From sequence record MN445185.1: DNA of 64,000 nucleotides; one strand, given 5' to 3'. Of this stretch, positions 2,876 to 53,185 are shown one piece after another. The notes beneath the pieces are model-generated. The model had not been told where the DNA came from, did not search any database, and was given only the letters and a program-made list of their open reading frames with translations. The position numbers were made by a program, and so were the translations under genes. Source of the stretch: Escherichia phage vB_EcoM_EC001. Each line of letters opens with the position of its first letter. Position 1 is the stretch's first letter.

Positions 2876-3673
2876 ATGAAAGCGATTCACACCTTTCGCA
2901 TGACCGGCCAAACTGTTCTCGACATTGATGCGTATGAAGCCGCTAACTTCACCAAACCGACCAAGCTCTGGGATCGCTTGGTTAAGGTACTGCCGCAAAG
3001 CGGTGAGGTGCAGTTGGATTTTGTCATGGCATCGACGTTGGATAAAACAGTGGCAGTTATTTATACTGCTGACGGTGTGCAGAGTAAGAAGGACCTGGCA
3101 ATCGAAGATAAAGGCGGGCTGGGTTATCACTTGTTCCTGCACTGCGTAACCACTGCACCGATTTCAGCTGCGCTGGCGGGACAGTACGGTTTCGCGAATG
3201 CGTATTTCCTGGCACAGAAACTCGCCGTGAATGTTATTCCGGGTGACGTGACCACTTACCCTGAATACGTACAGCGTATCCTGCCAGAGCACTTCGCTGC
3301 AGACGACTACGATTTCAACGTGTTCCGTTTCGCATTGATCGGCGAATCGCGCGATCCAGAATACACCGTTGGCTTGCGTGCCTGTCTGCGTCACTCCGTT
3401 ATCTCTTCGGATGAAGGGATGTCGAATAACGTGAACGAAGTGTTCCCGATGATGCAAGTCGGTCCGTATATCACTTTCAACTCGTACATTCCGTTCCCGG
3501 CACAGATTCTGCCGCCGCAGAACGATAACAGTGTACTGCCAATCGCCGACAAGTATTCACTGCGTGCGAGCGAAGCAGTTGAAGTGATTAACGATCGTCG
3601 CTTTACATTGTCAGTGACCAGCGGCATCAGTGAACCGGAAGTTGCGGTCTCTCAGAGCCTGGATTTGATGTAA
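2876..3673 (+). CDS. hypothetical phage protein
   Basis: 265-aa ORF; AAGGAAAA ribosome-binding site upstream; followed directly by terminator. Confidence 0.65.
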   Translation: MKAIHTFRMTGQTVLDIDAYEAANFTKPTKLWDRLVKVLPQSGEVQLDFVMASTLDKTVAVIYTADGVQSKKDLAIEDKGGLGYHLFLHCVTTAPISAALAGQYGFANAYFLAQKLAVNVIPGDVTTYPEYVQRILPEHFAADDYDFNVFRFALIGESRDPEYTVGLRACLRHSVISSDEGMSNNVNEVFPMMQVGPYITFNSYIPFPAQILPPQNDNSVLPIADKYSLRASEAVEVINDRRFTLSVTSGISEPEVAVSQSLDLM

Positions 3674-3680
3674 AAGTGTG

Positions 3681-3715
3681 CCTGGTCTCCTTGTGAGACC
3701 AGGTCTCTTTATTTT
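3681..3715 (+). terminator. rho-independent terminator
   Basis: stem CCTGGTCTC/GAGACCAGG followed by TCTCTTTATTTT. Confidence 0.8.
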
Positions 3716-3717
3716 AG

Positions 3718-3820
3718 CCCTCTAAACGCACTCACAACCTTCTAAAGCCTCTCTAACGGTAGAACGACCCTCTAAAGTGATAAAAGCTCTCAAAACGCGT
3801 TTGAGAGCGTTATAGAGGGT
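3718..3820. repeat. iteron-like cluster: four direct copies of CYYTCTAAM plus a 9-bp inverted repeat GCTCTCAAA/TTTGAGAGC with 5-nt spacer
   Basis: copies at 3718, 3738, 3748, 3768; inverted repeat at 3786-3808; sits between terminator and promoter-like element. Confidence 0.55.
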
Positions 3821-3838
3821 ATACTCTGAATAAAAATA

Positions 3839-3867
3839 ATTTCAGATATATATTACCTAGGTGATAG
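3839..3867 (+). promoter_or_regulatory. conserved promoter-like element, variant A (ATTTCAGATATATATTACYTAGGTGA)
   Basis: one of three near-identical ~80-bp copies (also 32871, 52661) ending in a conserved ribosome-binding site and ATG. Confidence 0.55.
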
Positions 3868-3915
3868 AAGACAATCTATCAACTCAATCGACTATTAATC
3901 TAAAGGAGTATTGCC

Positions 3916-4059
3916 ATGTTAACTCGTAACCATAAACGTGCCATCTTCGCCATCGTTGCTGTTGTTGCTTTCGCGGTATTGTCTATCACTGTAACTCAAG
4001 ATTACAACAAATGCATCGATAACGGTAACTCTGTTGCCATGTGTACAGGTCGCGGCTAA
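3916..4059 (+). CDS. small hydrophobic protein (47 aa, one predicted transmembrane helix)
   Basis: AAAGGAG ribosome-binding site 7 nt upstream of ATG; hydrophobic stretch AIFAIVAVVAFAVLSI; below ORF-track size cutoff. Confidence 0.45.
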   Translation: MLTRNHKRAIFAIVAVVAFAVLSITVTQDYNKCIDNGNSVAMCTGRG

Positions 4060-4241
4060 TGGACTTTTCTGATACGCAGTTTGCCGAGTTCTTATCTCAC
4101 CCGCGTGTTAAACGTGAGTGGGATAATCTCACTAACGGTGTTCGTCATCAGGACGAAGAAGAAATTGTTCACGTTACCGCGCAAGTCTTACTCGTCTCAC
4201 CGACAGGTAATGTGTTTCCAATGCAGCAGGAGATTTACTAA
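4059..4241 (+). CDS. hypothetical small protein
   Basis: ATG overlaps upstream stop (TAATG); ORF track 4041 start is an upstream GTG. Confidence 0.4.
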   Translation: MDFSDTQFAEFLSHPRVKREWDNLTNGVRHQDEEEIVHVTAQVLLVSPTGNVFPMQQEIY

Positions 4242-4429
4242 TGGGCGTTTTAGTTAATTACGATGGTAAAAACGGAATCGTGCTTCGCGAAGTGGAAGAT
4301 AACGAAACAGTAGAGGTGAATCCGCAAACCTCAGAACGTACGTTTATCGTGGGGCCGAAAAGCGCATTACCGAAGCCGGACTGGAAAGAAGAGCTGGCGA
4401 AGTTCCGTGGGGAACTCGGGAAGAAGTAG
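4241..4429 (+). CDS. hypothetical small protein
   Basis: 62-aa ORF, ATG overlaps upstream stop; followed by terminator. Confidence 0.45.
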   Translation: MGVLVNYDGKNGIVLREVEDNETVEVNPQTSERTFIVGPKSALPKPDWKEELAKFRGELGKK

Positions 4430-4442
4430 TATAGATAATTTA

Positions 4443-4470
4443 ATACCACCTACGGGTGGTATTATTTTTT
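4443..4470 (+). terminator. rho-independent terminator
   Basis: stem ATACCACC/GGTGGTAT, loop TACG, then TATTTTTT. Confidence 0.7.
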
Positions 4471-4487
4471 GCCTAAGGAACATGAAA

Positions 4488-4904
4488 ATGATTAATGAGA
4501 AGCTCCAAAAGTATTTAAAGAACGACACTGACTGGATGGTTCTTGACCAGTACGGACGATTTGTTCCGCTATCCAAGGATTCCCCTATACCCCGTGACAA
4601 GGCGATTTATATTCCTGACGGTAAGGGTGGCTATCGTTTCTGGGAAGGCCAGGAAGTAAAAGAGGAAATGTTCTACATGGAGCCGAAGTTCCGTGCAGCG
4701 TTCCCATCGAAAAATATTAACGGATATGTTTACAACGCAATTCCGCCAATCACGCATCCTAACTTTGAGGTTGTGAACTACCCCGCAACTGTTCTGGATT
4801 GGCAACGTGCCATTAGTGAACACTACACGATTCCGCTTGAAGGTGTTTACTTCCCATTCCGTGATATTAGTTTAGATGACTTTATTAACTCTCTTAAGGA
4901 CTAA
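4488..4904 (+). CDS. hypothetical protein
   Basis: AAGGA 8 nt upstream of ATG at 4488; ORF-track start 4407 would overlap the terminator. Confidence 0.6.
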   Translation: MINEKLQKYLKNDTDWMVLDQYGRFVPLSKDSPIPRDKAIYIPDGKGGYRFWEGQEVKEEMFYMEPKFRAAFPSKNINGYVYNAIPPITHPNFEVVNYPATVLDWQRAISEHYTIPLEGVYFPFRDISLDDFINSLKD

Positions 4905-4908
4905 AAAA

Positions 4909-5769
4909 ATGTACAGCATTACTGATTTTATCAAAAGTTCAGATTTCCCCCTACCTCCAGACCACGAAGTATTGGCTAGCGATCCGTTAACCGATGCGGC
5001 CATTGTCCAGCTGGACCGTGACAAACGTCGTACTTACGTCGTGTTGGTCGAAGGAAAGAGCTACGGCCTGTCTTCTTACGACCTGGAGCAGCAAGAGCGC
5101 TTCCTCGATGAAAACCGCAAAACGTCAATGTATAGCGCTATCTCGCGCGCGTTGTGCAAGGTAATGGCGACGATCACGGACAGCAAAAAGCGCGTCGCCG
5201 TGCTACAGGGTATCAATGCGCTAACGACCAAAATCCAACAACTTGAAGGTTTCCATTGCCCACGATTGGAAGCCGCACAGAAGGATGCTAAGGGTGATGA
5301 GGCCATGGTGCTGTTTGGAGGCAATACTGTCTTTGCAACAGCTGAAGCTTGTTATCTCACCTATCCAACCTTTAACTATACGCCAATCAGCGACACCGTA
5401 GACGGGATTAAAGTAGAGAACGTCGTGCAATGGGGTCGCGCAAATCTCAAGTTTGTGATGTCCCATGAAGAAGAAAATCAAGACGGCCTTGGCCAGAAGA
5501 TTCAACGTTGGTTCACGGCACGTTTGGACGCCGACTGGGAAGCGCATGTTAACGCACAGCTTCGTAAATTTCACGCGGTGGTCGCATTGTTAAAAGAAAA
5601 TACTCCTGCCCCGAAACAATCGAAGGCACCGGTGGTTGGCTGGACGTGTTCCGGCTGTAACCGCAACCATGTCGCCACAGTACCGAGAACCCATCGCTAC
5701 ACTTCGCAGACGATGAACATTGCTTGTCCGGCTTGCGGCAAGATCAACGAAGTTGATTATAAACCGTAG
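4909..5769 (+). CDS. hypothetical protein with C-terminal zinc-ribbon (CSGC...CPAC)
   Basis: AAGGA 8 nt upstream of ATG; four Cys in CxxC...CxxC arrangement at C-terminus. Confidence 0.6.
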   Translation: MYSITDFIKSSDFPLPPDHEVLASDPLTDAAIVQLDRDKRRTYVVLVEGKSYGLSSYDLEQQERFLDENRKTSMYSAISRALCKVMATITDSKKRVAVLQGINALTTKIQQLEGFHCPRLEAAQKDAKGDEAMVLFGGNTVFATAEACYLTYPTFNYTPISDTVDGIKVENVVQWGRANLKFVMSHEEENQDGLGQKIQRWFTARLDADWEAHVNAQLRKFHAVVALLKENTPAPKQSKAPVVGWTCSGCNRNHVATVPRTHRYTSQTMNIACPACGKINEVDYKP

Positions 5770-5774
5770 TAGTA

Positions 5775-5815
5775 CCCCCTCTTACCTTCGGGTAAGAGGG
5801 TTTTATATTTATTTT
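5775..5815 (+). terminator. rho-independent terminator (UUCG loop)
   Basis: stem CCCCTCTTACC/GGTAAGAGGG then TTTTATATTTATTTT; same stem reused at 32790. Confidence 0.8.
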
Positions 5816-5820
5816 CCGAA

Positions 5821-5857
5821 AAGAAAATAAAAGGCGCTCTCTCCCGAAGGAGAGAGC
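5821..5857 (-). terminator. rho-independent terminator on minus strand
   Basis: minus-strand reading GCTCTCTCC-TTCG-GGAGAGAGC followed by GCCTTTTATTTTCTTTT; convergent with the plus-strand terminator. Confidence 0.6.
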
Positions 5858-6175
5858 TTATTCACATCCACTTAGAGGTTAACATGAATACCTTTATGCA
5901 ACAACTGCGTCAGCAACAGCTGAAACAAGTCGCTTTTCAACAACGTCTGCAAGAGGTTACCCGCCAACCGCAGACTTCCACCCGTACCATTAAAGGACTA
6001 GGAGGTGAGATAATACTCAACAAGAGATAACATGAATATTTGCATGGACTAACTGTACCCGAGTGTTCACAGCACTCGGGTTATTCCATGCATATAAATA
6101 GTTCGTCGTATTTTTTTTTGATCTTGGCAGGACGCATAAACTGCCCGTAGGGGAGCTTAGGCTCCCCAGTGTTCG

Positions 6176-7738
6176 TTAGAACAAATCATCACCCATTCCA
6201 CCGGTGAAGAAGTTGATAGACGACGCTGTTACGGTTTCTTCTTTATCACAATCCCAAGGCAGGATGCCAACATCCTGGAAAGGTATCACTGTGTAGTGAT
6301 AAGATTCTTTAGTATCGATAATGGTGCGGTGCTTACCGCGTTGAACTTCTAAGAAGCTATGGCCGTTGACCACACGCTTGTTAAAATACATTTCACCATC
6401 GGCCTCGTTATCAAGGCTCGAACAACTATCGTAAAGACCACGACCAGGTAAGTTCTTACAGAAACCTACCGGGTCTAACGCTTTTAAGCGCTTACCTTCT
6501 GGGGAAATCTGGTGTGGGGCAATTAAGAACCCACGGTTGCGTACCACTTGGATGTTACGAGCAATACGATAAATTTCTTTGATATCACTCCCGGCAATAC
6601 CGTTGCCGTGTCCTGCTTTGCTGATTGTGCCTAAGTAGTCTGCGCGAATGCCAACAACATGATAACCGCGACGACGTAAGTCGAGAATAAGGTCGTTGAT
6701 GTAGTGCACTTTAAAATCGGAGTTGGTGTGCTTTTGGAAAACGTAGTCCCAACCGTTTGCGCGAATCTTACCACAGAGGTAATCAGACATTGCTGTTGTG
6801 TGTGCTAACTTCTCTTCAGCGGTTGCATCCTGTGCAATGGTCATCTGTGGAACTTGTCCTTCAAAATGACCGTACAGTGCTTGATAGCCGTAAGCTAAGT
6901 TAACGTCGAGTTCGTTTTCTAAACTCAAGTCAAGAATAATTGGTTGCAGTGTGCCCTTCACATCCGCCATTACTTTCTCAGGCGTGTTGAAGATAGGAAT
7001 CGACAAGCTCAGTAAGAGACTGAACAAAGACTTACAGTTAAAAGGTAACGCCGGCATTAGCCACAGTTCTTCGGTAATCCCTTTGTTACAACCGAGCATT
7101 TGGTTAATGGCTTTCCAGCCCGTCTGCAAACCATTACCTGCTGCTTTCTTGTTAATCGAGTCGAACACTTTAACAAACGGAGCCCGATTATCTGTAACCA
7201 GCTCACCGACCAGCGATGGAATCTTATTATGAGAGCGTTCACCGAACGTAGATAGCGCCTCTTTGAGTTCGAGCACTGCGGTGTTCAGATCAACACGTGT
7301 CTCAGTTCCATTCAATGCTCCGAACGCGCGACCCATTTTTGTTTTGAGTTCGACGCTCTGTAAACATTGACGTAATTGGAAATAATATTGAGACAGTTGT
7401 CGATTAAGATGCTCGGTACGTTTGTCTTCTTCCTCGGGCAAATCGTCTTCGAGGAATTTGGTAATCGTATCGTATAGAGGACGTACTTGAGTGGTGGCCA
7501 GCTTCAAGCGCTTCATAACGCTCGCGTGGTCGTATTCCATGCCGCCGTCTATGATAGATGTGATAATGTCCTTGATCTCGATGAGTGCAAAGCGCTCTTC
7601 GCCATCTTCCGCATATTCCGGAAGCTTGATCTGCATCAGAACTTTTCTTATGACATCATGATCCTTGCTAGGGTCCGTCAGCATAGATTCTGTATACAGT
7701 GCGGCTAAGGCGGTTATCAACATCATTTTACTATTCAT
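6176..7738 (-). CDS. hypothetical protein (520 aa), function unknown
   Basis: long minus-strand ORF; no recognisable catalytic motif. Confidence 0.65.
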   Translation of the reverse strand: MNSKMMLITALAALYTESMLTDPSKDHDVIRKVLMQIKLPEYAEDGEERFALIEIKDIITSIIDGGMEYDHASVMKRLKLATTQVRPLYDTITKFLEDDLPEEEDKRTEHLNRQLSQYYFQLRQCLQSVELKTKMGRAFGALNGTETRVDLNTAVLELKEALSTFGERSHNKIPSLVGELVTDNRAPFVKVFDSINKKAAGNGLQTGWKAINQMLGCNKGITEELWLMPALPFNCKSLFSLLLSLSIPIFNTPEKVMADVKGTLQPIILDLSLENELDVNLAYGYQALYGHFEGQVPQMTIAQDATAEEKLAHTTAMSDYLCGKIRANGWDYVFQKHTNSDFKVHYINDLILDLRRRGYHVVGIRADYLGTISKAGHGNGIAGSDIKEIYRIARNIQVVRNRGFLIAPHQISPEGKRLKALDPVGFCKNLPGRGLYDSCSSLDNEADGEMYFNKRVVNGHSFLEVQRGKHRTIIDTKESYHYTVIPFQDVGILPWDCDKEETVTASSINFFTGGMGDDLF

Positions 7739-7752
7739 GGAGCATCCTTAAA

Positions 7753-8277
7753 ATGCAAATTCGTTTTAGTCCACCGTGGGAAGTTCAATCTAACATAGAT
7801 AAAGGGGCTGGCGTTAAAAAGTTGGAGGAACTCCAAGCAAGCTTCTTTAACTGGTTATATGACTGCTCGTCGGGCTTTAGTTCCATCATACTGCCAGTGA
7901 GTGACCCTATTTCGATTTATAAATCGATTATGGCACCACCTGCACTTCCGACTCTTTATTATGACCAGGTCTTAAACCTGGTTGAGAAAGGTACGAATGA
8001 AACCCTTGCTGATTTATATGGGGAATCATTCGACGGTCGTTTACGTTGGGTGTTCTCACAACGTGGCGATGTTGTTGTGGCGTCTTTTGCAGAAGCTAAA
8101 TCCGGACCGGGTTTTTCTTTAAGTGAAGACCACGCTGCGAAAAAGATGTTCTGCGCAGAACTTTTTAAATATATGCGTCCCAAGACTCGTGTCGTGGATG
8201 ATACGTTCAGTACGTCGACGCAGTTTGCTGCGCACGAAGTGCTGACGCAGTTGTACGCATGTCATTTATCTAAATAA
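7753..8277 (+). CDS. hypothetical protein immediately upstream of the abundant structural gene
   Basis: ATG at 7753 in frame with ORF-track 7699 ORF; only 14 bp from the divergent minus-strand start. Confidence 0.45.
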   Translation: MQIRFSPPWEVQSNIDKGAGVKKLEELQASFFNWLYDCSSGFSSIILPVSDPISIYKSIMAPPALPTLYYDQVLNLVEKGTNETLADLYGESFDGRLRWVFSQRGDVVVASFAEAKSGPGFSLSEDHAAKKMFCAELFKYMRPKTRVVDDTFSTSTQFAAHEVLTQLYACHLSK

Positions 8278-8289
8278 GGTAAACTTGAA

Positions 8290-10590
8290 ATGAAAGATAC
8301 CCGTATCGCTAGTCTGGACCAGCTGGTTCAGCAGGGCAATGCTCTGGTCGCTGCTGCCAAGGCAGGCTCTTCCGCTAATGACGTATGGCAAACCGTAGCC
8401 GTTGGCGAATCTGTACGTAAAAATGCTGCCGGCTTCACCAACCTGCGTGACACTGCTCAGCAGCACTACGAAGCTGTAAACCCTGGCAAAACCATGAGCC
8501 ACGCTGCTCAGGTTGCTTCTGCGATGATTCTGGCTGCTGCCGGTCACGAAGACGACTTCATGACCCGTGTTGCTGCCGAGAGCGCGAAGCCGGAATACGC
8601 CAGCTACATGCCGATCGCTATTTCTGGTGCAGCATCTCTGGCTGCTGACTACGGTAAAACTCCGCTGGTCGCAACTGAATACTACACCAACAAAGACCTG
8701 GACAAAAACCTGGGTCTGACCTGGACGCTGAACGTGCGTGCTCTGGAAACTCAATCCAAGTTTGCAGAAACCCTGTTCCCGACCATCACTGTGGACACCA
8801 ACGACGTCGGCATCACCGTTCGTACCAAAGTTACTACTGTATCTCGTGGTATCCTGAACGCCCTGCTGACCAAAGACGTGGTTGAAGACAACCGTCAGCC
8901 GCTGCATAACGCGCTGTCTAACCACAAAGTCCTGCAGGACGATGCTATCCGTATCGTACCTTACGTGATGGAAACCGGTGAGAACGCGAAGTTCTTCGTA
9001 TCCGAAGACATCATCGAAAACGAAAACGTTCAGCTGGGTCGTGTGCCGGCGTATCCGACCAACTACCTGAGCTTCTCTGAACGTCGTCTGAACCTGTTCC
9101 AGCTGTCTGCCCATCCGGGTATCGTGCAGGAAGGTTACGATGAAACCGACGAAATCGCACCGGGTGCAGCGCTGGGTAGCCTGCTGCTGTCTGTGCGTAA
9201 GCCGACTGAAGAAGCGAAAGATGGCGCGCTGATCAAACTGAACGTACGCGACATGCAGTTCGCTACCTTCCAGCGTCCTCCTGAAGGTGATGGCCGTGAG
9301 CTGGTCCTGCAGTTCCGTCGCACTGTGTTCTCCCTGAACGCCAAGTCTCTGGACTGGAAAGGTGCTGAAATCCCGGCACTGGCCGCTCTGGCACAGAACG
9401 ATTACACCATTCGTTATTCCATGAACATCAGCATGTCTCTGTTCACCAACGGTCAGTTCTCTGGTCGTGTTGACGTGACTGCACCGTCTCTGGAAATCGA
9501 AGGTCTGTACGACGCAACTGGTACTGCTGTTGATATCGAAAGCGGCACCGGTAAAGTTATCATCGACAACCTGAAACTGGAGCTGCTGGGCTGGCGCTTC
9601 GACGGTACTCGTACCAACGAGAACCGGAGAACCCAGGGCCTTCTGCTCGACCCGATTTGGGAACAAGAGAACTACAAACTGCAGTACGGTTCTCCGATCA
9701 TGACCAAATCTCCGGTTGGCGTTGAATACGACGACACCGAACGTCTGGACGACCTCGTTTCTGCGGTTAACATCCGTAACGAAATGCTGGCTATCACTCA
9801 GACTCTGTCTTACACCGAAGCGGTTAAGAACGCAGCTGCGTCCATGATCACTCCGTGGGACAAACCTGCTATCCGCGGCCTGGGCCGTCACTGGGTTGCT
9901 CCGTGGTACAGCGAAAGCGACTACGAAGTGGACAAAGTGATCCAGTCTCTGGATACCAAAGATGCGCTCATCAACGCCCGTCAGGGTCTGGTACAGCGTA
10001 TCGGCGACCAGGTAACTCGTGCTATCCAGGATTCTCGTTTCATGCCGGCTCTGCGCCTGCTGACTGCGGACCCGAACGCACTGCCGAAAGTTGTTATCGC
10101 AACTGACGAACCGACTGCTGCAATGCTGCTGCTGGTTCAGGGTGACCAGCGTCTGCTGGGCGATCGCTACGAGTACGAAGTTATCACCACCAACGATGAC
10201 CGCTGGCGTGTGAAGAACGAAGCTGACGGCAGCTGGACTCGCCGCCTGCAGTGGGTTCTGAAAGTTCCAACCGCTGATGACGGTTCTTACTGTGTTCTGA
10301 ACTGGGGTAACCACTTCTGGTCTCCGATCATGGTAACCAACATCAACATCCAGCGTAACGGCGCTACCAGCAAAGAGCTGGCAGTACAGCCTCGTAACGC
10401 GCACATCTGCCACTGCCCGATCACTGGTCTGATCTGGATTAAAGGTATCACCAAGTTCGTGGAAGAGAAACTGGCGTTCAACGTCACTACTACTTCCAAC
10501 GGTACTGGCGGTACTAATGGCGGTAATGCGGGTGATGTTGGCGGCGGCGCTACCCAGCCAGGTACTGGCGGTGAAGGCGCTGGCGGCTAA
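8290..10590 (+). CDS. abundant virion structural protein, 766 aa; major capsid protein candidate (tail sheath not excluded)
   Basis: extreme bias to enterobacterial optimal codons (CTG, CGT, GGT, ACC, AAA); size in range of jumbo-phage capsid proteins; Gly-rich C-terminal tail; strong terminator after. Confidence 0.5.
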   Translation: MKDTRIASLDQLVQQGNALVAAAKAGSSANDVWQTVAVGESVRKNAAGFTNLRDTAQQHYEAVNPGKTMSHAAQVASAMILAAAGHEDDFMTRVAAESAKPEYASYMPIAISGAASLAADYGKTPLVATEYYTNKDLDKNLGLTWTLNVRALETQSKFAETLFPTITVDTNDVGITVRTKVTTVSRGILNALLTKDVVEDNRQPLHNALSNHKVLQDDAIRIVPYVMETGENAKFFVSEDIIENENVQLGRVPAYPTNYLSFSERRLNLFQLSAHPGIVQEGYDETDEIAPGAALGSLLLSVRKPTEEAKDGALIKLNVRDMQFATFQRPPEGDGRELVLQFRRTVFSLNAKSLDWKGAEIPALAALAQNDYTIRYSMNISMSLFTNGQFSGRVDVTAPSLEIEGLYDATGTAVDIESGTGKVIIDNLKLELLGWRFDGTRTNENRRTQGLLLDPIWEQENYKLQYGSPIMTKSPVGVEYDDTERLDDLVSAVNIRNEMLAITQTLSYTEAVKNAAASMITPWDKPAIRGLGRHWVAPWYSESDYEVDKVIQSLDTKDALINARQGLVQRIGDQVTRAIQDSRFMPALRLLTADPNALPKVVIATDEPTAAMLLLVQGDQRLLGDRYEYEVITTNDDRWRVKNEADGSWTRRLQWVLKVPTADDGSYCVLNWGNHFWSPIMVTNINIQRNGATSKELAVQPRNAHICHCPITGLIWIKGITKFVEEKLAFNVTTTSNGTGGTNGGNAGDVGGGATQPGTGGEGAGG

Positions 10591-10620
10591 TAATCCGTAA
10601 GGATTACGTTGCCTAAGATT

Positions 10621-27536: not shown

Positions 27537-28670
27537 ATGTCGACGCTCGATTTAGATTTAGAAGTCCTGACTGACGACTACGATCGCCTGGTCGCACTCG
27601 AAGGTCTGGGAGTTAAGCCCGACTTCCCTGCGGTTTGCGCGATTCGTCAGCGTTGGTGCTTAACCGACGACGGTGAAGATATGTTGGTTGCTCGTGAATC
27701 GCGTGAAGCGATGGAGCGTGCTCAGTTTATGACTGATACCGACCCGCGAGCTGGTATCCATCGCGCAGCAGGGCGCATTACTGCGAAGGCTGTTAAAGGC
27801 GCTGGAAAGTTAGTGGGTGCTGGACTAGGTGCAACCGCAAAGGGTGCGGGTAAACTTTCGAAAAAGCTCGCATTACGCTTTTACGATTTCGCGGAAGCGC
27901 TAGCGAAAGAACAAGCCGACCGTTTGAAAGAAATAACTTCGAAAGCTGCTTTCATGGAACGTAAGCTCAATAAGCTTAAAACGCGAATGTCGCTGCTAGA
28001 TGAGCACAAAACACTCGCTGCAGTTGACGTTCACACTAGCAGCTGGACGTCTAAAATTTGTTTTGAAGATCGACCCGATTTTGAAGCGTGTGTTCGGTTT
28101 TCTAAACAAACAAATGCGTACGAAGGCGTCGTGCAAAAGTACACGGTTTACACACGCACTGCTCTGAAGAAAAGCAAAGCATTCGAAGGGCCGGGCTTAA
28201 AACAAATCAGCAAGTCCACAAACTGGGCAGTTAAGCGTGCCGCTGGATTGCTTGGCATCATCGATCCCTTTAAAAAGGTGGAAGCTTTTCCTGTTCCTGG
28301 AAATATCGTTGTGGTTGAGCACCATAGTGGTAAGATCAGTTGGGCAATTGCGCGTGACGGCGATTATGGTGAAACCATTAAATCGCTGGATATGCATCAG
28401 TGTGGGAAAGCAATAGAGGCTGTGGAAGCACTTATCAAATCTATTGCTGCGCGCGGAACAAAGAACCGTGTTGTAGGCTACACTGGTATCTACGAAGAAG
28501 TGGAAGCGATGAAGTCCGAGCTTAAGAACCTGGAAGGGGATGAGCTGAAAGAAGCCACTTTGCGCTACCGCAATGCAATGGCGATGGAAGACGCTTTTAC
28601 CACGGCATTGGTACGTGTGGCGGAGGGTCTAATGGAATGGACGAAGCAATCGCTGGCCGAGGTGAACTGA
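27537..28670 (+). CDS. hypothetical protein with Gly/Ala/Lys-rich repeat
   Basis: GGGGATG start context; internal KGAGKL repeats. Confidence 0.55.
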   Translation: MSTLDLDLEVLTDDYDRLVALEGLGVKPDFPAVCAIRQRWCLTDDGEDMLVARESREAMERAQFMTDTDPRAGIHRAAGRITAKAVKGAGKLVGAGLGATAKGAGKLSKKLALRFYDFAEALAKEQADRLKEITSKAAFMERKLNKLKTRMSLLDEHKTLAAVDVHTSSWTSKICFEDRPDFEACVRFSKQTNAYEGVVQKYTVYTRTALKKSKAFEGPGLKQISKSTNWAVKRAAGLLGIIDPFKKVEAFPVPGNIVVVEHHSGKISWAIARDGDYGETIKSLDMHQCGKAIEAVEALIKSIAARGTKNRVVGYTGIYEEVEAMKSELKNLEGDELKEATLRYRNAMAMEDAFTTALVRVAEGLMEWTKQSLAEVN

Positions 28671-32828: not shown

Positions 32829-32870
32829 CAGATCAGAACAGTCTTATGCTTTTTGCTTCCACTCCACTAA

Positions 32871-32899
32871 ATTTCAGATATATATTACTTAGGTGAGAG
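32871..32899 (+). promoter_or_regulatory. conserved promoter-like element, variant A
   Basis: ATTTCAGATATATATTACTTAGGTGAGAG; conserved downstream AATCGACTATTAATCTAAAAGGAGTATT. Confidence 0.55.
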
Positions 32900-32947
32900 T
32901 TACTACTAAACTCTCTAATCGACTATTAATCTAAAAGGAGTATTCTA

Positions 32948-33313
32948 ATGCGTTTTAAACATCAAACCGTTGTGTTGGCAAAGAAAGCGTTTTTGGTTCG
33001 TCTTTCTTACATTATTACTCGTGTCACTGCGAAGGACGTTACGCAGAAAGACATTGCGTTATTAGTAGGCTGCTCACCGTCACAAATATCTGCGATTAAA
33101 AATGAACGTGAGAAGGCCGTGACTATCGAAACATTGATGCGGGTTGCTGATACACTGCGCCTGAATTACGAAATCGTCTACCGTTCCATCAACGGCAAAT
33201 GCCGCCATAGCTTTAAAATTGAATCATGCATCGATTACATGAACAACTGTCCTATCCGGGTACGAGAAACAGGACTTAAAGTCATGGCACGTAAACCTTC
33301 TGCAGTAATGTAG
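32948..33313 (+). CDS. helix-turn-helix (XRE/Cro-like) transcriptional regulator
   Basis: QKDIALLVGCSPSQISAIKNE ... TIETLMRVADTL matches helix-turn-helix pattern; first gene after promoter-like element. Confidence 0.5.
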   Translation: MRFKHQTVVLAKKAFLVRLSYIITRVTAKDVTQKDIALLVGCSPSQISAIKNEREKAVTIETLMRVADTLRLNYEIVYRSINGKCRHSFKIESCIDYMNNCPIRVRETGLKVMARKPSAVM

Positions 33314-39771: not shown

Positions 39772-40077
39772 ATGGCTAAACAATACATAATTGTTAAACG
39801 CGCAGGTACGACTCTGCTGTACGTGGAGAAAGGTTGTGAGAACACTGCAACCGCCAAGAAACTGAATCTGCAAGGGTTTCTGTATCAAGGTCTCCGCGCG
39901 GGTTTGACCATCACTTTTAAAGGCTTACCACAGGCGAAGAATCTGCGCGTCGTACGTGCAGACGGTGTAGAGCGTGCCTTGGTAGCCGACACCCCGGTTG
40001 ATACTATCCCTGCCAGTAAGAAGGCAGCGAAAGCAACCAAGAAAGTCGACGATAAACGCAAACGCGTTGTCGCTTAA
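39772..40077 (+). CDS. small basic protein with Lys-rich C-terminal tail
   Basis: C-terminus SKKAAKATKKVDDKRKRVVA. Confidence 0.5.
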   Translation: MAKQYIIVKRAGTTLLYVEKGCENTATAKKLNLQGFLYQGLRAGLTITFKGLPQAKNLRVVRADGVERALVADTPVDTIPASKKAAKATKKVDDKRKRVVA

Positions 40078-50866: not shown

Positions 50867-51268
50867 ATGTTCGGCCTGTTTCAGGAGAAAAAACAGTTGC
50901 GTCGCCAATTAGAAATACTGGAATTGGAACTCAGCCTATCAAAGACTGAGTTGGAAATTTCGAAAGAAGCGTGGAAAAGAAATCTTGATGAATCTTTCGA
51001 AGAACGCCGTAAGCTTACACGACTACTTTCTGAGGAACAGTCTAAGAACCGGAAACTCGAAGATGAGCTACGAGATGCCCGACGAGATGCGGATCTGCGT
51101 GACAAGATGTTAGGACGGAACCTGGGTGCCCTAATCTATTTCATAGAGCAACGTTGGGAACCAAAAACACTCCTTGAGTTGCTCTATGAAAAACTCTCCT
51201 GTGTAGGTAAACGTTCTGCGGCCATCGAGTATTTCCGTAGTCACGGTTTCGAGGTAAAAGATGAGTAA
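50867..51268 (+). CDS. coiled-coil protein
   Basis: AGGAGAAAAC then ATG; heptad-like charged sequence ELELSLSKTELEISKEAWKRNLDES. Confidence 0.5.
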   Translation: MFGLFQEKKQLRRQLEILELELSLSKTELEISKEAWKRNLDESFEERRKLTRLLSEEQSKNRKLEDELRDARRDADLRDKMLGRNLGALIYFIEQRWEPKTLLELLYEKLSCVGKRSAAIEYFRSHGFEVKDE

Positions 51269-52641: not shown

Positions 52642-52660
52642 CCTAGTCCGATTACAATTA

Positions 52661-52690
52661 TTTTCAGATATATATTACTTAGGTGAGAGT
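52661..52690 (+). promoter_or_regulatory. conserved promoter-like element, variant A
   Basis: TTTTCAGATATATATTACTTAGGTGAGAG with conserved leader AATCGACCATTATCTTAAGGAG. Confidence 0.55.
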
Positions 52691-52738
52691 TAACAATTAA
52701 CTCTTATCTAATCGACCATTATCTTAAGGAGTTTTAAC

Positions 52739-53185
52739 ATGTACATTCTGAATAACGAACTTACTAAATACGCTAGCAAAAACCCGATTATGGTTTCTTT
52801 CCTAATCGTGATGGCGGCCAACAAACAAGACCCTAGCGAATTCACTACTGAGGACTTCGAAGAGATTATCGCCAACGCCAAAGAAGCCACGTTCCAGACT
52901 ACGGAACCCACACGTGACGAGTTCCCTCTAGGTGAAGCCGGTGACGTAATGTTTAACGACATGGTTGCTTCGTATTACATCAGTAGACGTGGTATGGAAA
53001 TCGAATACGACGAACTTCCTACTAGCAGCTTTGCTGAAATGATTCGTGATTATCGTCGTCAAGTTGTCTCTGACGATGTTGTAAAGAAATACATGGCACA
53101 AATCAGTCCATTCAGTCTTGAATTCGAAAACCGCGCGGTTGCCTTAGCGACGCATCGCCTGCGTTTAGAAAAAGAAGTACACTAA
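52739..53185 (+). CDS. hypothetical acidic protein
   Basis: first gene after promoter-like element; 148 aa. Confidence 0.55.
   Translation: MYILNNELTKYASKNPIMVSFLIVMAANKQDPSEFTTEDFEEIIANAKEATFQTTEPTRDEFPLGEAGDVMFNDMVASYYISRRGMEIEYDELPTSSFAEMIRDYRRQVVSDDVVKKYMAQISPFSLEFENRAVALATHRLRLEKEVH

Follow-up and report, generated by a model that had tools for sequence, protein, structure and literature searches.

A non-coding array of one short repeat unit between a terminator and a promoter-like cassette in an SPN3US-type jumbo phage

A short non-coding stretch of Escherichia phage vB_EcoM_EC001 (sequence record MN445185.1) is crowded with direct and inverted repeats, which raises the question of what these repeats are and what might recognize them. 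We analyzed 64,000 nucleotides of this genome (hereafter, the window), which belong to a jumbo phage of the SPN3US type (Seoulvirus, related to phiKZ): positions 3000-4500 share 99.5% identity with Salmonella phage SPFM4 and 98.3% with SPN3US. The array is located in a 243-bp non-coding gap that separates a gp65-like open reading frame (ORF) at 2876-3673 (phrog_8163, function unknown) from a 47-aa ORF at 3916-4059, and the genes adjoining it encode small proteins of unknown function. With a GC-content of 0.39, the gap is among the lowest-GC spots of the genome, the remaining ones being promoter cassettes. A first-pass annotation had described four direct copies of CYYTCTAAM, summarized as CTCTAAA repeats, next to a 9-bp inverted repeat, and had read them as replication-origin iterons or as a multi-site operator. 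We found that a single short recognition unit, present in both orientations, recurs across the array, and that this clustering is real and non-random.

One repeat unit in two orientations

The true repeat unit is 10-12 bp long (GCGTTnnAGAGG; reverse complement CCTCTnnAACGC), and the array contains seven, possibly eight, copies of it in ~105 bp, four to five in one orientation and two to three in the other (Table 1). Three of the four CYYTCTAAM copies were recovered where they had been placed, at 3718, 3738 and 3768; the third in order starts at 3749, not 3748. What had been missed is that these direct repeats (3716-3777) are inverted copies of the right-hand units, and that the right-hand part is the one conserved in evolution. 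Copy 1 matches GCGTTTAGAGGGCT exactly when reverse-complemented, and TAGAGGGT (3813-3820) finds its complement in ACCCTCTA (3767-3774); the whole array forms a dyad-symmetric field of ~105 bp. The right-hand part, or core block, is composed of an A-run (3782-3785) followed by GCTCTCAAAAC (3786-3796), which is a degenerate or inverted first unit, GCGTTTGAGA (3797-3806), GCGTTATAGAGGG (3807-3819) and TAT. It includes the 9-bp inverted repeat noticed earlier, confirmed as GCTCTCAAA-ACGCG-TTTGAGAGC, as well as the partial inverted copy TTATAGAGGG, present at 3810-3819. The possible eighth copy makes an overlapping palindrome (TTATAGAGGGTATAC / GTATACTCTGAATAA). The spacing between units is roughly helical (20, 11, 19, 18 and 10 bp), with 10 bp head-to-tail inside the block and ~10 or 20 bp among the upstream copies.

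The clustering of these units exceeds what is expected by chance. The heptamer CTCTAAA of the first-pass annotation is too narrow: with two exact copies in the array and five in the window against 6.4 expected, it presents no window-wide enrichment, and we replaced it with the 10-12-bp unit. The degenerate pattern CYYTCTAAM was found nine times in the window relative to 3.3 expected matches, a count reached in none of 100 shuffles, and four of these nine matches fall within 59 nt. An independent position weight matrix (PWM) of the unit, built solely from other phages, yielded six hits in 3705-3835 against 0.98 expected (0/500 shuffles); within the core block, it scored 14.4 and 10.9 bits on the plus strand and 9.1 bits on the minus strand. 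We also scanned repeat density by counting the most frequent 7-mer (at most one mismatch, both strands) in 110-nt segments. The array stretch was the single top segment of 3,195, with seven copies; since seven copies were also reached in one of 12 Markov-shuffled 64-kb sequences (about P = 0.1), this statistic taken alone is suggestive. The next-ranked stretches, with six 7-mer copies each, were found at ~50901-51010 (TTGGAAA), 27861-27990 (CGAAAGC) and 10481-10610 (CTGGCGG). Finally, a scan of the whole SPN3US genome identified intergenic tandem unit sites at this locus and at one other only, and such clusters are not common genome-wide. The clustering of the unit, its two orientations, its helical spacing and its non-coding location present an anatomy that fits a multi-site protein-binding array.

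Table 1. Features of the array gap and its borders (window coordinates)
Feature	Position	Strand	Remarks
Intrinsic-terminator-like hairpin and T-run	3680..3712	+	Ends upstream operon (gp65-like ORF 2876-3673)
Unit copy 1, AGCCCTCTAAACGC	3716..3729	-	Best inverted copy; unit PWM 12.7 bits
Unit copy 2, CCTTCTAAA (reverse complement TTTAGAAGG)	3738..3746	-	PWM 7.5 bits; core invariant in close relatives
Unit copy 3, CTCTCTAAC (reverse complement GTTAGAGAG)	3749..3757	-	PWM 7.4 bits; weakest and least conserved
Unit copy 4, CCCTCTAAA	3768..3776	-	Core invariant in close relatives
Conserved core block, A-run and about three tandem 10-bp units	3782..3822	+	Contains palindrome 3786-3808
Possible eighth copy, degenerate, inverted, ACTCTGAAT	3823..3831	-	80% complementary; below PWM threshold
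Promoter-like cassette core, AATTTCAGATATATATTACCTAGGTGATAG	3838..3867	+	Occurs three times in the window and at least seven times in SPN3US
Conserved leader, hairpin arms 3859-3868 and 3875-3884, then AATCGACTATTAATCTAAAGGAGT	3859..3915	+	Up to ATG 3916
First gene of downstream operon, 47 aa, hydrophobic segment, phrog_8574	3916..4059	+	Function unknown

The core block in jumbo phages and beyond

In 14 relatives, we examined the corresponding gap that follows the gp65 homolog. The array was found to consist of two layers: the block at 3782-3822 is an old non-coding element conserved across genera of SPN3US-type jumbo phages, with two loci per genome, and the four copies of opposite orientation (3716-3777) were added in the SPN3US lineage and are confined to close relatives. 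At the syntenic site, the block is present in Seoulvirus (SPAsTU and pEa29), Machinavirus (ChrisDB, Caitlin, Huxley, pEa4 and pEa6), Erskinevirus (Asesino and phiEaH2), Wellington (Wellingtonvirus) and the uncultivated phage L014, as an A-run and three to four tandem 10-bp units (GCGYTTAGAR, GCGTYnnAGR, GCGTTWTAGAGG, GTAT) in spacer DNA that cannot be aligned among these relatives. It was not found in the syntenic gap of Derbicusvirus (Phobos, CR5 and EarlPhillipIV), where the terminator directly abuts the promoter cassette. Among close relatives, the cores of copies 1, 2 and 4 are invariant (the 9-mer of copy 1 is missing in other genera), 7/37 spacer sites vary, and all four variable sites inside the upstream 9-mers fall in copy 3 (3749-3752).

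The second locus is located outside the window, at 137,545-137,582 of SPN3US (L004 37545-37582), and reads GCTTTTAGAGA, GCGTTACAGA, GCGTTTTAGAGG and GTAAAT. It lies between convergent genes, directly before a bidirectional terminator whose hairpin starts within ~15 nt, and a conserved A-rich stretch (CAAAATAAA) stands between block and terminator. Locus 2 is kept in at least nine lineages, among them SPAsTU, phiEaH2 and a set of five uncultivated relatives, with two or three units that differ by exactly one 10-bp unit (L093 relative to L094 and L095); the block is missing there from Phobos and two more distant contigs. The loss of the block at both loci in Derbicusvirus hints at a trans-acting partner.

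Two further observations concern these jumbo-phage copies. A motif resembling ATT(T/C)ATCGTCTTA stands 8-15 nt upstream of the block in eight of 14 copies, at both loci (L008, L017, L019, L020, L021, L026, L027 and SPN3US 137,522), and the CYYTCTAAM copies of the window stand where relatives have this motif. Three unit-like 10/11-mers (GCGCCTGGGAG, GCGTTAGAGAA and GCGTTTACAGG) were also found within an SMC-domain gene (SPN3US 169,994-170,025; L005 19994-20025), which could represent chance or an embedded site.

The block extends well beyond jumbo phages. The locus-2 copy matches a 34-nt stretch of the T5-like phage SuperGirl with 94% identity, in a 930-bp pre-early region that is ORF-free, rich in DnaA boxes and close to the A2 gene, where it stands beside a DnaA-box pair. 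The 41-nt block consensus was found in 618 phage records, among them T5-like and FelixO1-like phages, Vibrio phages and a Xanthomonas jumbo phage, and in ~1,240 plasmids, mostly conjugative or mobilizable enterobacterial plasmids of ~20-180 kb, and a dinucleotide-shuffled query returned no match at E up to 1. In E. coli genomes, 1,299 of the 1,699 places with the block are on plasmids; the one chromosomal copy that we examined lies inside an inserted element. Beyond jumbo phages, nearly all matches fall in unannotated DNA. Their neighbors are varied: replication initiator, small terminase subunit (TerS) or HNH endonuclease genes. In a group of lambdoid contigs, the block is located ~100 nt after DnaD/O-like and lambda-P-like genes, and in contig L030 it is ~660 nt from a replication-initiator gene. 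The one plasmid examined, of the IncX/R6K-like type, carries two block copies between pir iterons with a ColE1-like primosome-assembly sequence on one side and a RelE/ParE toxin-antitoxin pair on the other. This replication region (p53_D, L087 2440-3230) contains six 22-bp pir-type iterons, a DnaA box and a near-identical ColE1/pBR322 primosome-assembly region; the block copies are separated by ~190 bp that include GCGTTAA-type repeats, and the toxin-antitoxin operon follows. All-versus-all ORF clustering of 59 viral-contig hits recovered clusters within lineages and no common neighbor gene family.

We aligned 36 non-redundant instances retrieved with a 16-base pattern, some of which are expected to be chance hits in a collection that large. 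They present no conserved partner sequence outside ~40 bp, and their conservation is 10-periodic rather than 3-periodic, with two free positions between successive invariant AGAGCGTT cores. A coding explanation was rejected on this periodicity; the frames are also interrupted differently between copies. Twenty-five of the 36 hits are intergenic, and 11 of the 20 with ORFs on both sides are at convergent or divergent junctions; the 11 hits inside ORFs are probably incidental, as is a hit in mobV of a 2.2-kb MobV plasmid.

Several of these regions are themselves rich in repeats. The block of FelixO1 sits in a 1.6-kb repeat field without ORFs or tRNAs (L091 1116-2737; FelixO1 12.3-13.9 kb), where CTTAACA (16 times), CTTGTTA (11 times) and CTCTATA (9 times) occur in both orientations and a single block copy is followed by a hairpin; our literature search found no description of this field. 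The ORF-free regions of FelixO1 and of an E. coli island, as well as an IncX replication region, contain more PWM matches of the unit than expected. We rejected the idea that the array is a miniature FelixO1 field, as CYYTCTAAM is unenriched in FelixO1, the E. coli island, the T5-like phage and IncX, and FelixO1 is dominated by CTTAACA. In the IMG/VR contig 3300027792_000033 (L067), a 307-aa ORF without Pfam or PHROG assignment contains five or more tandem 10-bp units (TACAGAGCGT-like), which are followed by CTGTAT/CTGAAT repeats encoding a Ser/Val-rich linker, a layout that resembles lambda ori inside gene O.

The core block seems never to have been described before, as a text search of ~8 million papers for its sequence strings returned no relevant one. 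The block (A-run and three GCGTTnnAGA units) could be an undescribed DNA element common to unrelated mobile elements of Enterobacterales and Vibrio and recognized by a common factor, a proposal that we consider doubtful. The block is carried by SPN3US-type jumbo phages, by phages of the T5-like, FelixO1-like and lambdoid groups, by IncX plasmids and by chromosomal islands. The common factor may be a host protein or a widespread defense or regulatory protein, for which the block may serve as a boundary, replication-accessory or decoy site, and the SPN3US array may then be a locally amplified version of the block.

The flanking terminator and promoter-like cassette

The two elements said to frame the array were both found. 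The terminator stem (3680-3704, with a 10-bp stem and a 5-nt loop) is followed by the tail CTCTTTATTT, and a hairpin is present at the equivalent place after the gp65 homolog in every relative compared. Downstream, the cassette (AATTTCAGATATATATTACYTAGGTGAG, hairpin, AATCGACTATTAATCTAAAGGAG, ATG) occurs in the window at 3838-3915, 32870-32947 and 52660-52742. In SPN3US it always follows a terminator, and it is conserved in Erwinia and Cronobacter relatives. The leader sequence lies at 3886-3909 and the Shine-Dalgarno AGGAG at 3904-3908. Early promoters of jumbo phages are AT-rich with a ~10-nt motif centered near -10 (PMC7598289); the cassette core fits this description and is probably an early promoter used by the virion RNA polymerase. 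A scan for sigma-70 promoters returned no site within the array; on visual inspection, the block is followed by a TAT, with no -35 at workable spacing.

The hairpin of these cassettes (TTTCAGATATATATTACYTAGGTGAG, hairpin, AATCGACYATTAWYCTAAGGAG, ATG) has a stem whose sequence differs in each copy and each relative and stays self-complementary (e.g., GATAGA/TCTATC, GAGAGTT/AACTCTC and GAGCGTTA/TAACGC), which looks like covariation in a 5'-leader structure. RNAalifold returned no consensus structure for the promoter leaders, whose variable stems had been left unaligned by MAFFT. In Salmonella phage SPFM2 (L010 ~405-431, syntenic to window 3845), the promoter core is duplicated in tandem over 27 bp (AGATATATATTACCTAGGTGATAGAAG twice), yielding two promoter motifs in tandem. 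Further downstream, a perfect 10-bp-stem hairpin (TAATACCACC-TACG-GGTGGTATTA, 4441-4464) with T-runs on both strands resembles a bidirectional terminator and closes the three-gene mini-operon that begins at 3916. A stand-alone ORF of ~135 aa (~400 bp) with the NAD-binding domain Ia of DNA ligase (Nlig-Ia, PF22745) lies between block and cassette in SPAsTU, pEa29, pEa4 and pEa6 (L007 1681-2085, L020 2455-2865, L019 2432-2845 and L015 2449-2844). Its distribution is patchy and moron-like: it is found in some Seoulvirus and Machinavirus phages and missing from their close relatives.

The neighboring cassette recalls the promoter-early stem-loop (PeSL) cassettes that T4-type phages reportedly carry, in which gene modules are separated by a terminator hairpin, a recurrent early promoter and a conserved leader, with genes present or absent at the junctions. 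This likeness concerns the cassette and not the array, and the cassette would be read by a jumbo-phage virion RNA polymerase whereas PeSL reportedly depends on host sigma-70.

Possible roles of the array

Our preferred explanation, which we advance tentatively as possible and short of probable, is that the array, at a boundary between transcription units, is bound cooperatively by protein. A sequence-specific DNA-binding protein would line up along one face of the helix. The bound complex would constitute a boundary or an operator, after the terminator and 27 nt before the early-type promoter motif, and would serve to modulate or insulate transcription starting at the adjacent promoter or to prevent read-through. 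Tandem units of 7-11 bp spaced by about one helical turn, direct or inverted and near a promoter, are known from ParR/parC of plasmid R1, omega of pSM19035 and arrays of the OmpR/PhoB family, and the present array resembles these in its helical-turn units, its two orientations and its position beside a promoter. However, such ribbon-helix-helix and winged-helix arrays are replicon-specific and lie beside the gene of their binder, whereas here unrelated replicons share the block and no binder gene is adjacent.

The binder would possibly be the phage Xre-type helix-turn-helix (HTH) protein encoded at 32948-33313 (PF01381), one of two candidates named by the first-pass annotation, or alternatively a factor common to many mobile elements. 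The HTH protein is restricted to jumbo phages and present in the block-bearing genera, and no homolog was detectable in Cronobacter phage CR5. This weak co-distribution with the block is a single, phylogenetically non-independent correlation. The other candidate, the basic protein at 39772, received no family assignment. We compared 2,408 ORFs from non-jumbo loci to SPN3US ORFs (blastp, E below 1e-4) and rejected a shared binder gene, as hits were confined to two contigs that belong to distant jumbo phages.

Several observations weigh against a boundary or operator array of this kind. The HTH protein is absent from the block-carrying T5-like and FelixO1-like phages and plasmids, Xre-type HTH proteins usually bind palindromes rather than direct repeats, and the left arm of the palindrome at 3786-3808 varies even in close relatives. 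In that blastp comparison, the proteins near the block in other elements had no homolog in SPN3US and no binder was identified; a host factor, for its part, may not reach the DNA of phiKZ-like jumbo phages, which form a nucleus. Across five close relatives, constraint is weaker in the array (15/110 variable positions) than in the terminator site (1/33 at 3680-3712) and the promoter-leader (2/78). The link to the adjacent promoter is also loose. As had been claimed, the array is unique to this promoter-like copy, being lacking at 32870 and 52660, and the remaining SPN3US cassettes are likewise without it. The block ends 27 nt before TATATTAC in the window and ~20-65 nt before it in relatives, a whole 135-aa ORF intervenes in four phages, and locus 2 presents no cassette at all. 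The sites thus keep no fixed position or phase relative to the promoter and do not accompany the promoter class. The part of the iteron or operator reading that stands is that of a multi-copy recognition array; an origin is unsupported and the array is not tied to this promoter.

We consider it unlikely that the array is a replication-associated site, such as a set of iterons or a site for helicase loading comparable to those bound by lambda O-type initiators. Its iteron-like anatomy stands beside a low-GC stretch and a gene for a DnaB-like helicase is located ~3 kb downstream of the gap, and the block accompanies replication genes in the lambdoid contigs and L030, pir iterons in IncX and DnaA-box pairs in the T5-like phage, but TerS and HNH genes suggest packaging-type neighbors in other lineages and the other low-GC spots are promoter cassettes. 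The units resemble the half-site of the lambda O iteron (the lambda ori sequence compared is 100% identical to J02459 39034-39173): two array units match a lambda-derived pattern relative to 0.11 expected, and the jumbo-unit PWM yields two hits in lambda iterons relative to 0.25 expected, which 28 of 1000 shuffles reach; the lambda-derived pattern is nevertheless unspecific overall (66 matches, 80 expected). Both arrays present a pyrimidine run followed by AAAACG (CCCTCTAAACG and GCTCTCAAAACG in the window, TCCCTCAAAACG and TCCCCTAAAACG in lambda; 10/12 identities) and several copies within ~100 bp near AT-rich DNA, with O/P-type genes beside the block in some lambdoid contigs. In contrast, the lambda iterons lie within gene O as inverted repeats of 18-19 bp at intervals of ~20-24 bp, and the repeats here are intergenic, direct and 10 bp long. 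We did not retain the array as a member of the lambda O iterons, given a marginally significant similarity and no O/P or Rep homolog among SPN3US ORFs at the blastp sensitivity used (E below 1e-4). Iterons are moreover normally specific to one initiator, while this element is common to replicons with unrelated initiators and occupies two loci per genome. The replication origin suggested by the first-pass annotation was not supported either: cumulative GC skew over the 240-kb genome, a weak origin criterion for such phages, tracks gene strand with no inflection near 65 kb, and DnaA-box consensus matches are not in excess (14 relative to 14.7 expected, none within ~2 kb of the gap). Overall, the array has clustered copies beside AT-rich DNA, as iterons do, and presents no cognate initiator gene at this blastp sensitivity, no skew switch and no DnaA boxes.

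Three further explanations were considered. The block could act at the RNA level, as the 5' untranslated or translation-initiation region of a gene lost from this phage or, at locus 2, as part of a short RNA that stops at the terminator, which we judge improbable. In SPAsTU, pEa29, pEa4 and pEa6, it ends 8-12 nt before the ATG of the Nlig-Ia ORF and its last unit forms the Shine-Dalgarno, an arrangement repeated at unrelated ORFs in L083, L060 and L042; yet the block is kept in at least seven lineages without this ORF. The terminator hairpin closely following locus 2 and a conserved ATTTATCGTCTTA motif, 8-15 nt upstream in 8/14 copies, which could be a promoter, would suit a short RNA. However, this motif was rejected as a promoter class, with two plus-strand matches in 240 kb, and neither locus has a relevant Rfam match at E up to 10. 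Secondary structure is not conserved, nor is the palindrome outside close relatives; the favorable fold (z = -2.6 and -3.5) is due to the inverted copies specific to this lineage, whose opposite orientation is left unexplained by an RNA, and orientation relative to co-directional genes shows no significant bias (6 versus 3). About equally improbable is a generic mobile-element sequence without a role in phage gene expression, acting as a DNA decoy for a defense or regulatory protein of the host or a prophage, or as a conserved junction at which gene modules are exchanged by recombination. The breadth of the block across phage records and plasmids, set against its silent shuffled control, would fit such a sequence, as would its position at module boundaries with no shared neighbor family and the presence/absence polymorphism of the Nlig-Ia ORF exactly between block and cassette. 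There is a precedent for a DNA decoy in aba (anti-BstA), a 63-bp DNA element with terminal CCCGCC repeats that is embedded in the bstA locus to which it belongs and responds to one BstA variant only (PMC8585504). Like aba, which works as DNA, the block is a short non-coding element with direct repeats on mobile elements, but aba is unrelated in sequence and was rejected as an identity for the array, which presents no CCCGCC terminal repeats, no bstA gene and no sequence similarity. No defense or host protein was linked to the block, and a partner encoded by the phage would account more readily for its joint loss from the two loci in one genus. Least credible to us is neutral local duplication or slippage in a tolerant spacer that left four functionless upstream copies. 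These copies are confined to close relatives, in the most variable part of the gap and with copy 3 decaying; the SPFM2 duplication indicates that such events happen at this locus, and the repeat density was equaled in one of the 12 shuffled sequences. However, copies 1, 2 and 4 kept invariant cores while their spacers varied, simple slippage does not yield copies that are inverted relative to their source block and separated by unrelated spacers, and the core block is clearly under long-term constraint.

Conserved non-coding repeats of the T5 terminal repeat have also been proposed as protein-binding sites (Davison, bioRxiv 10.1101/866236), and the SuperGirl block lies in a comparable ORF-free, DnaA-box-rich pre-early region. 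The published T5 repeats (IRC, IRD and DRA-DRE) nonetheless differ in sequence from the block, and their function is also unproven. Mapping the block onto them was abandoned, as T5 itself presents no good copy in 4500-10600 and the BF23 paper gives no nick consensus.

A cooperative binding array at a transcription-unit boundary, our preferred reading, would bear on a poorly charted part of phage biology. The early promoter motif is the only cis-acting site known for phages of the SPN3US type, and regulatory DNA is almost uncharted in nucleus-forming jumbo phages. A two-locus element that was lost in concert in one genus constitutes a handle for finding a DNA-binding regulator or a replication or boundary factor. 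Should its carriers not be recognized by one factor, the array would represent a modest lineage-specific repeat cluster; if one factor does recognize all of them, it would constitute a new shared node in the interactions between phages, plasmids and their hosts.

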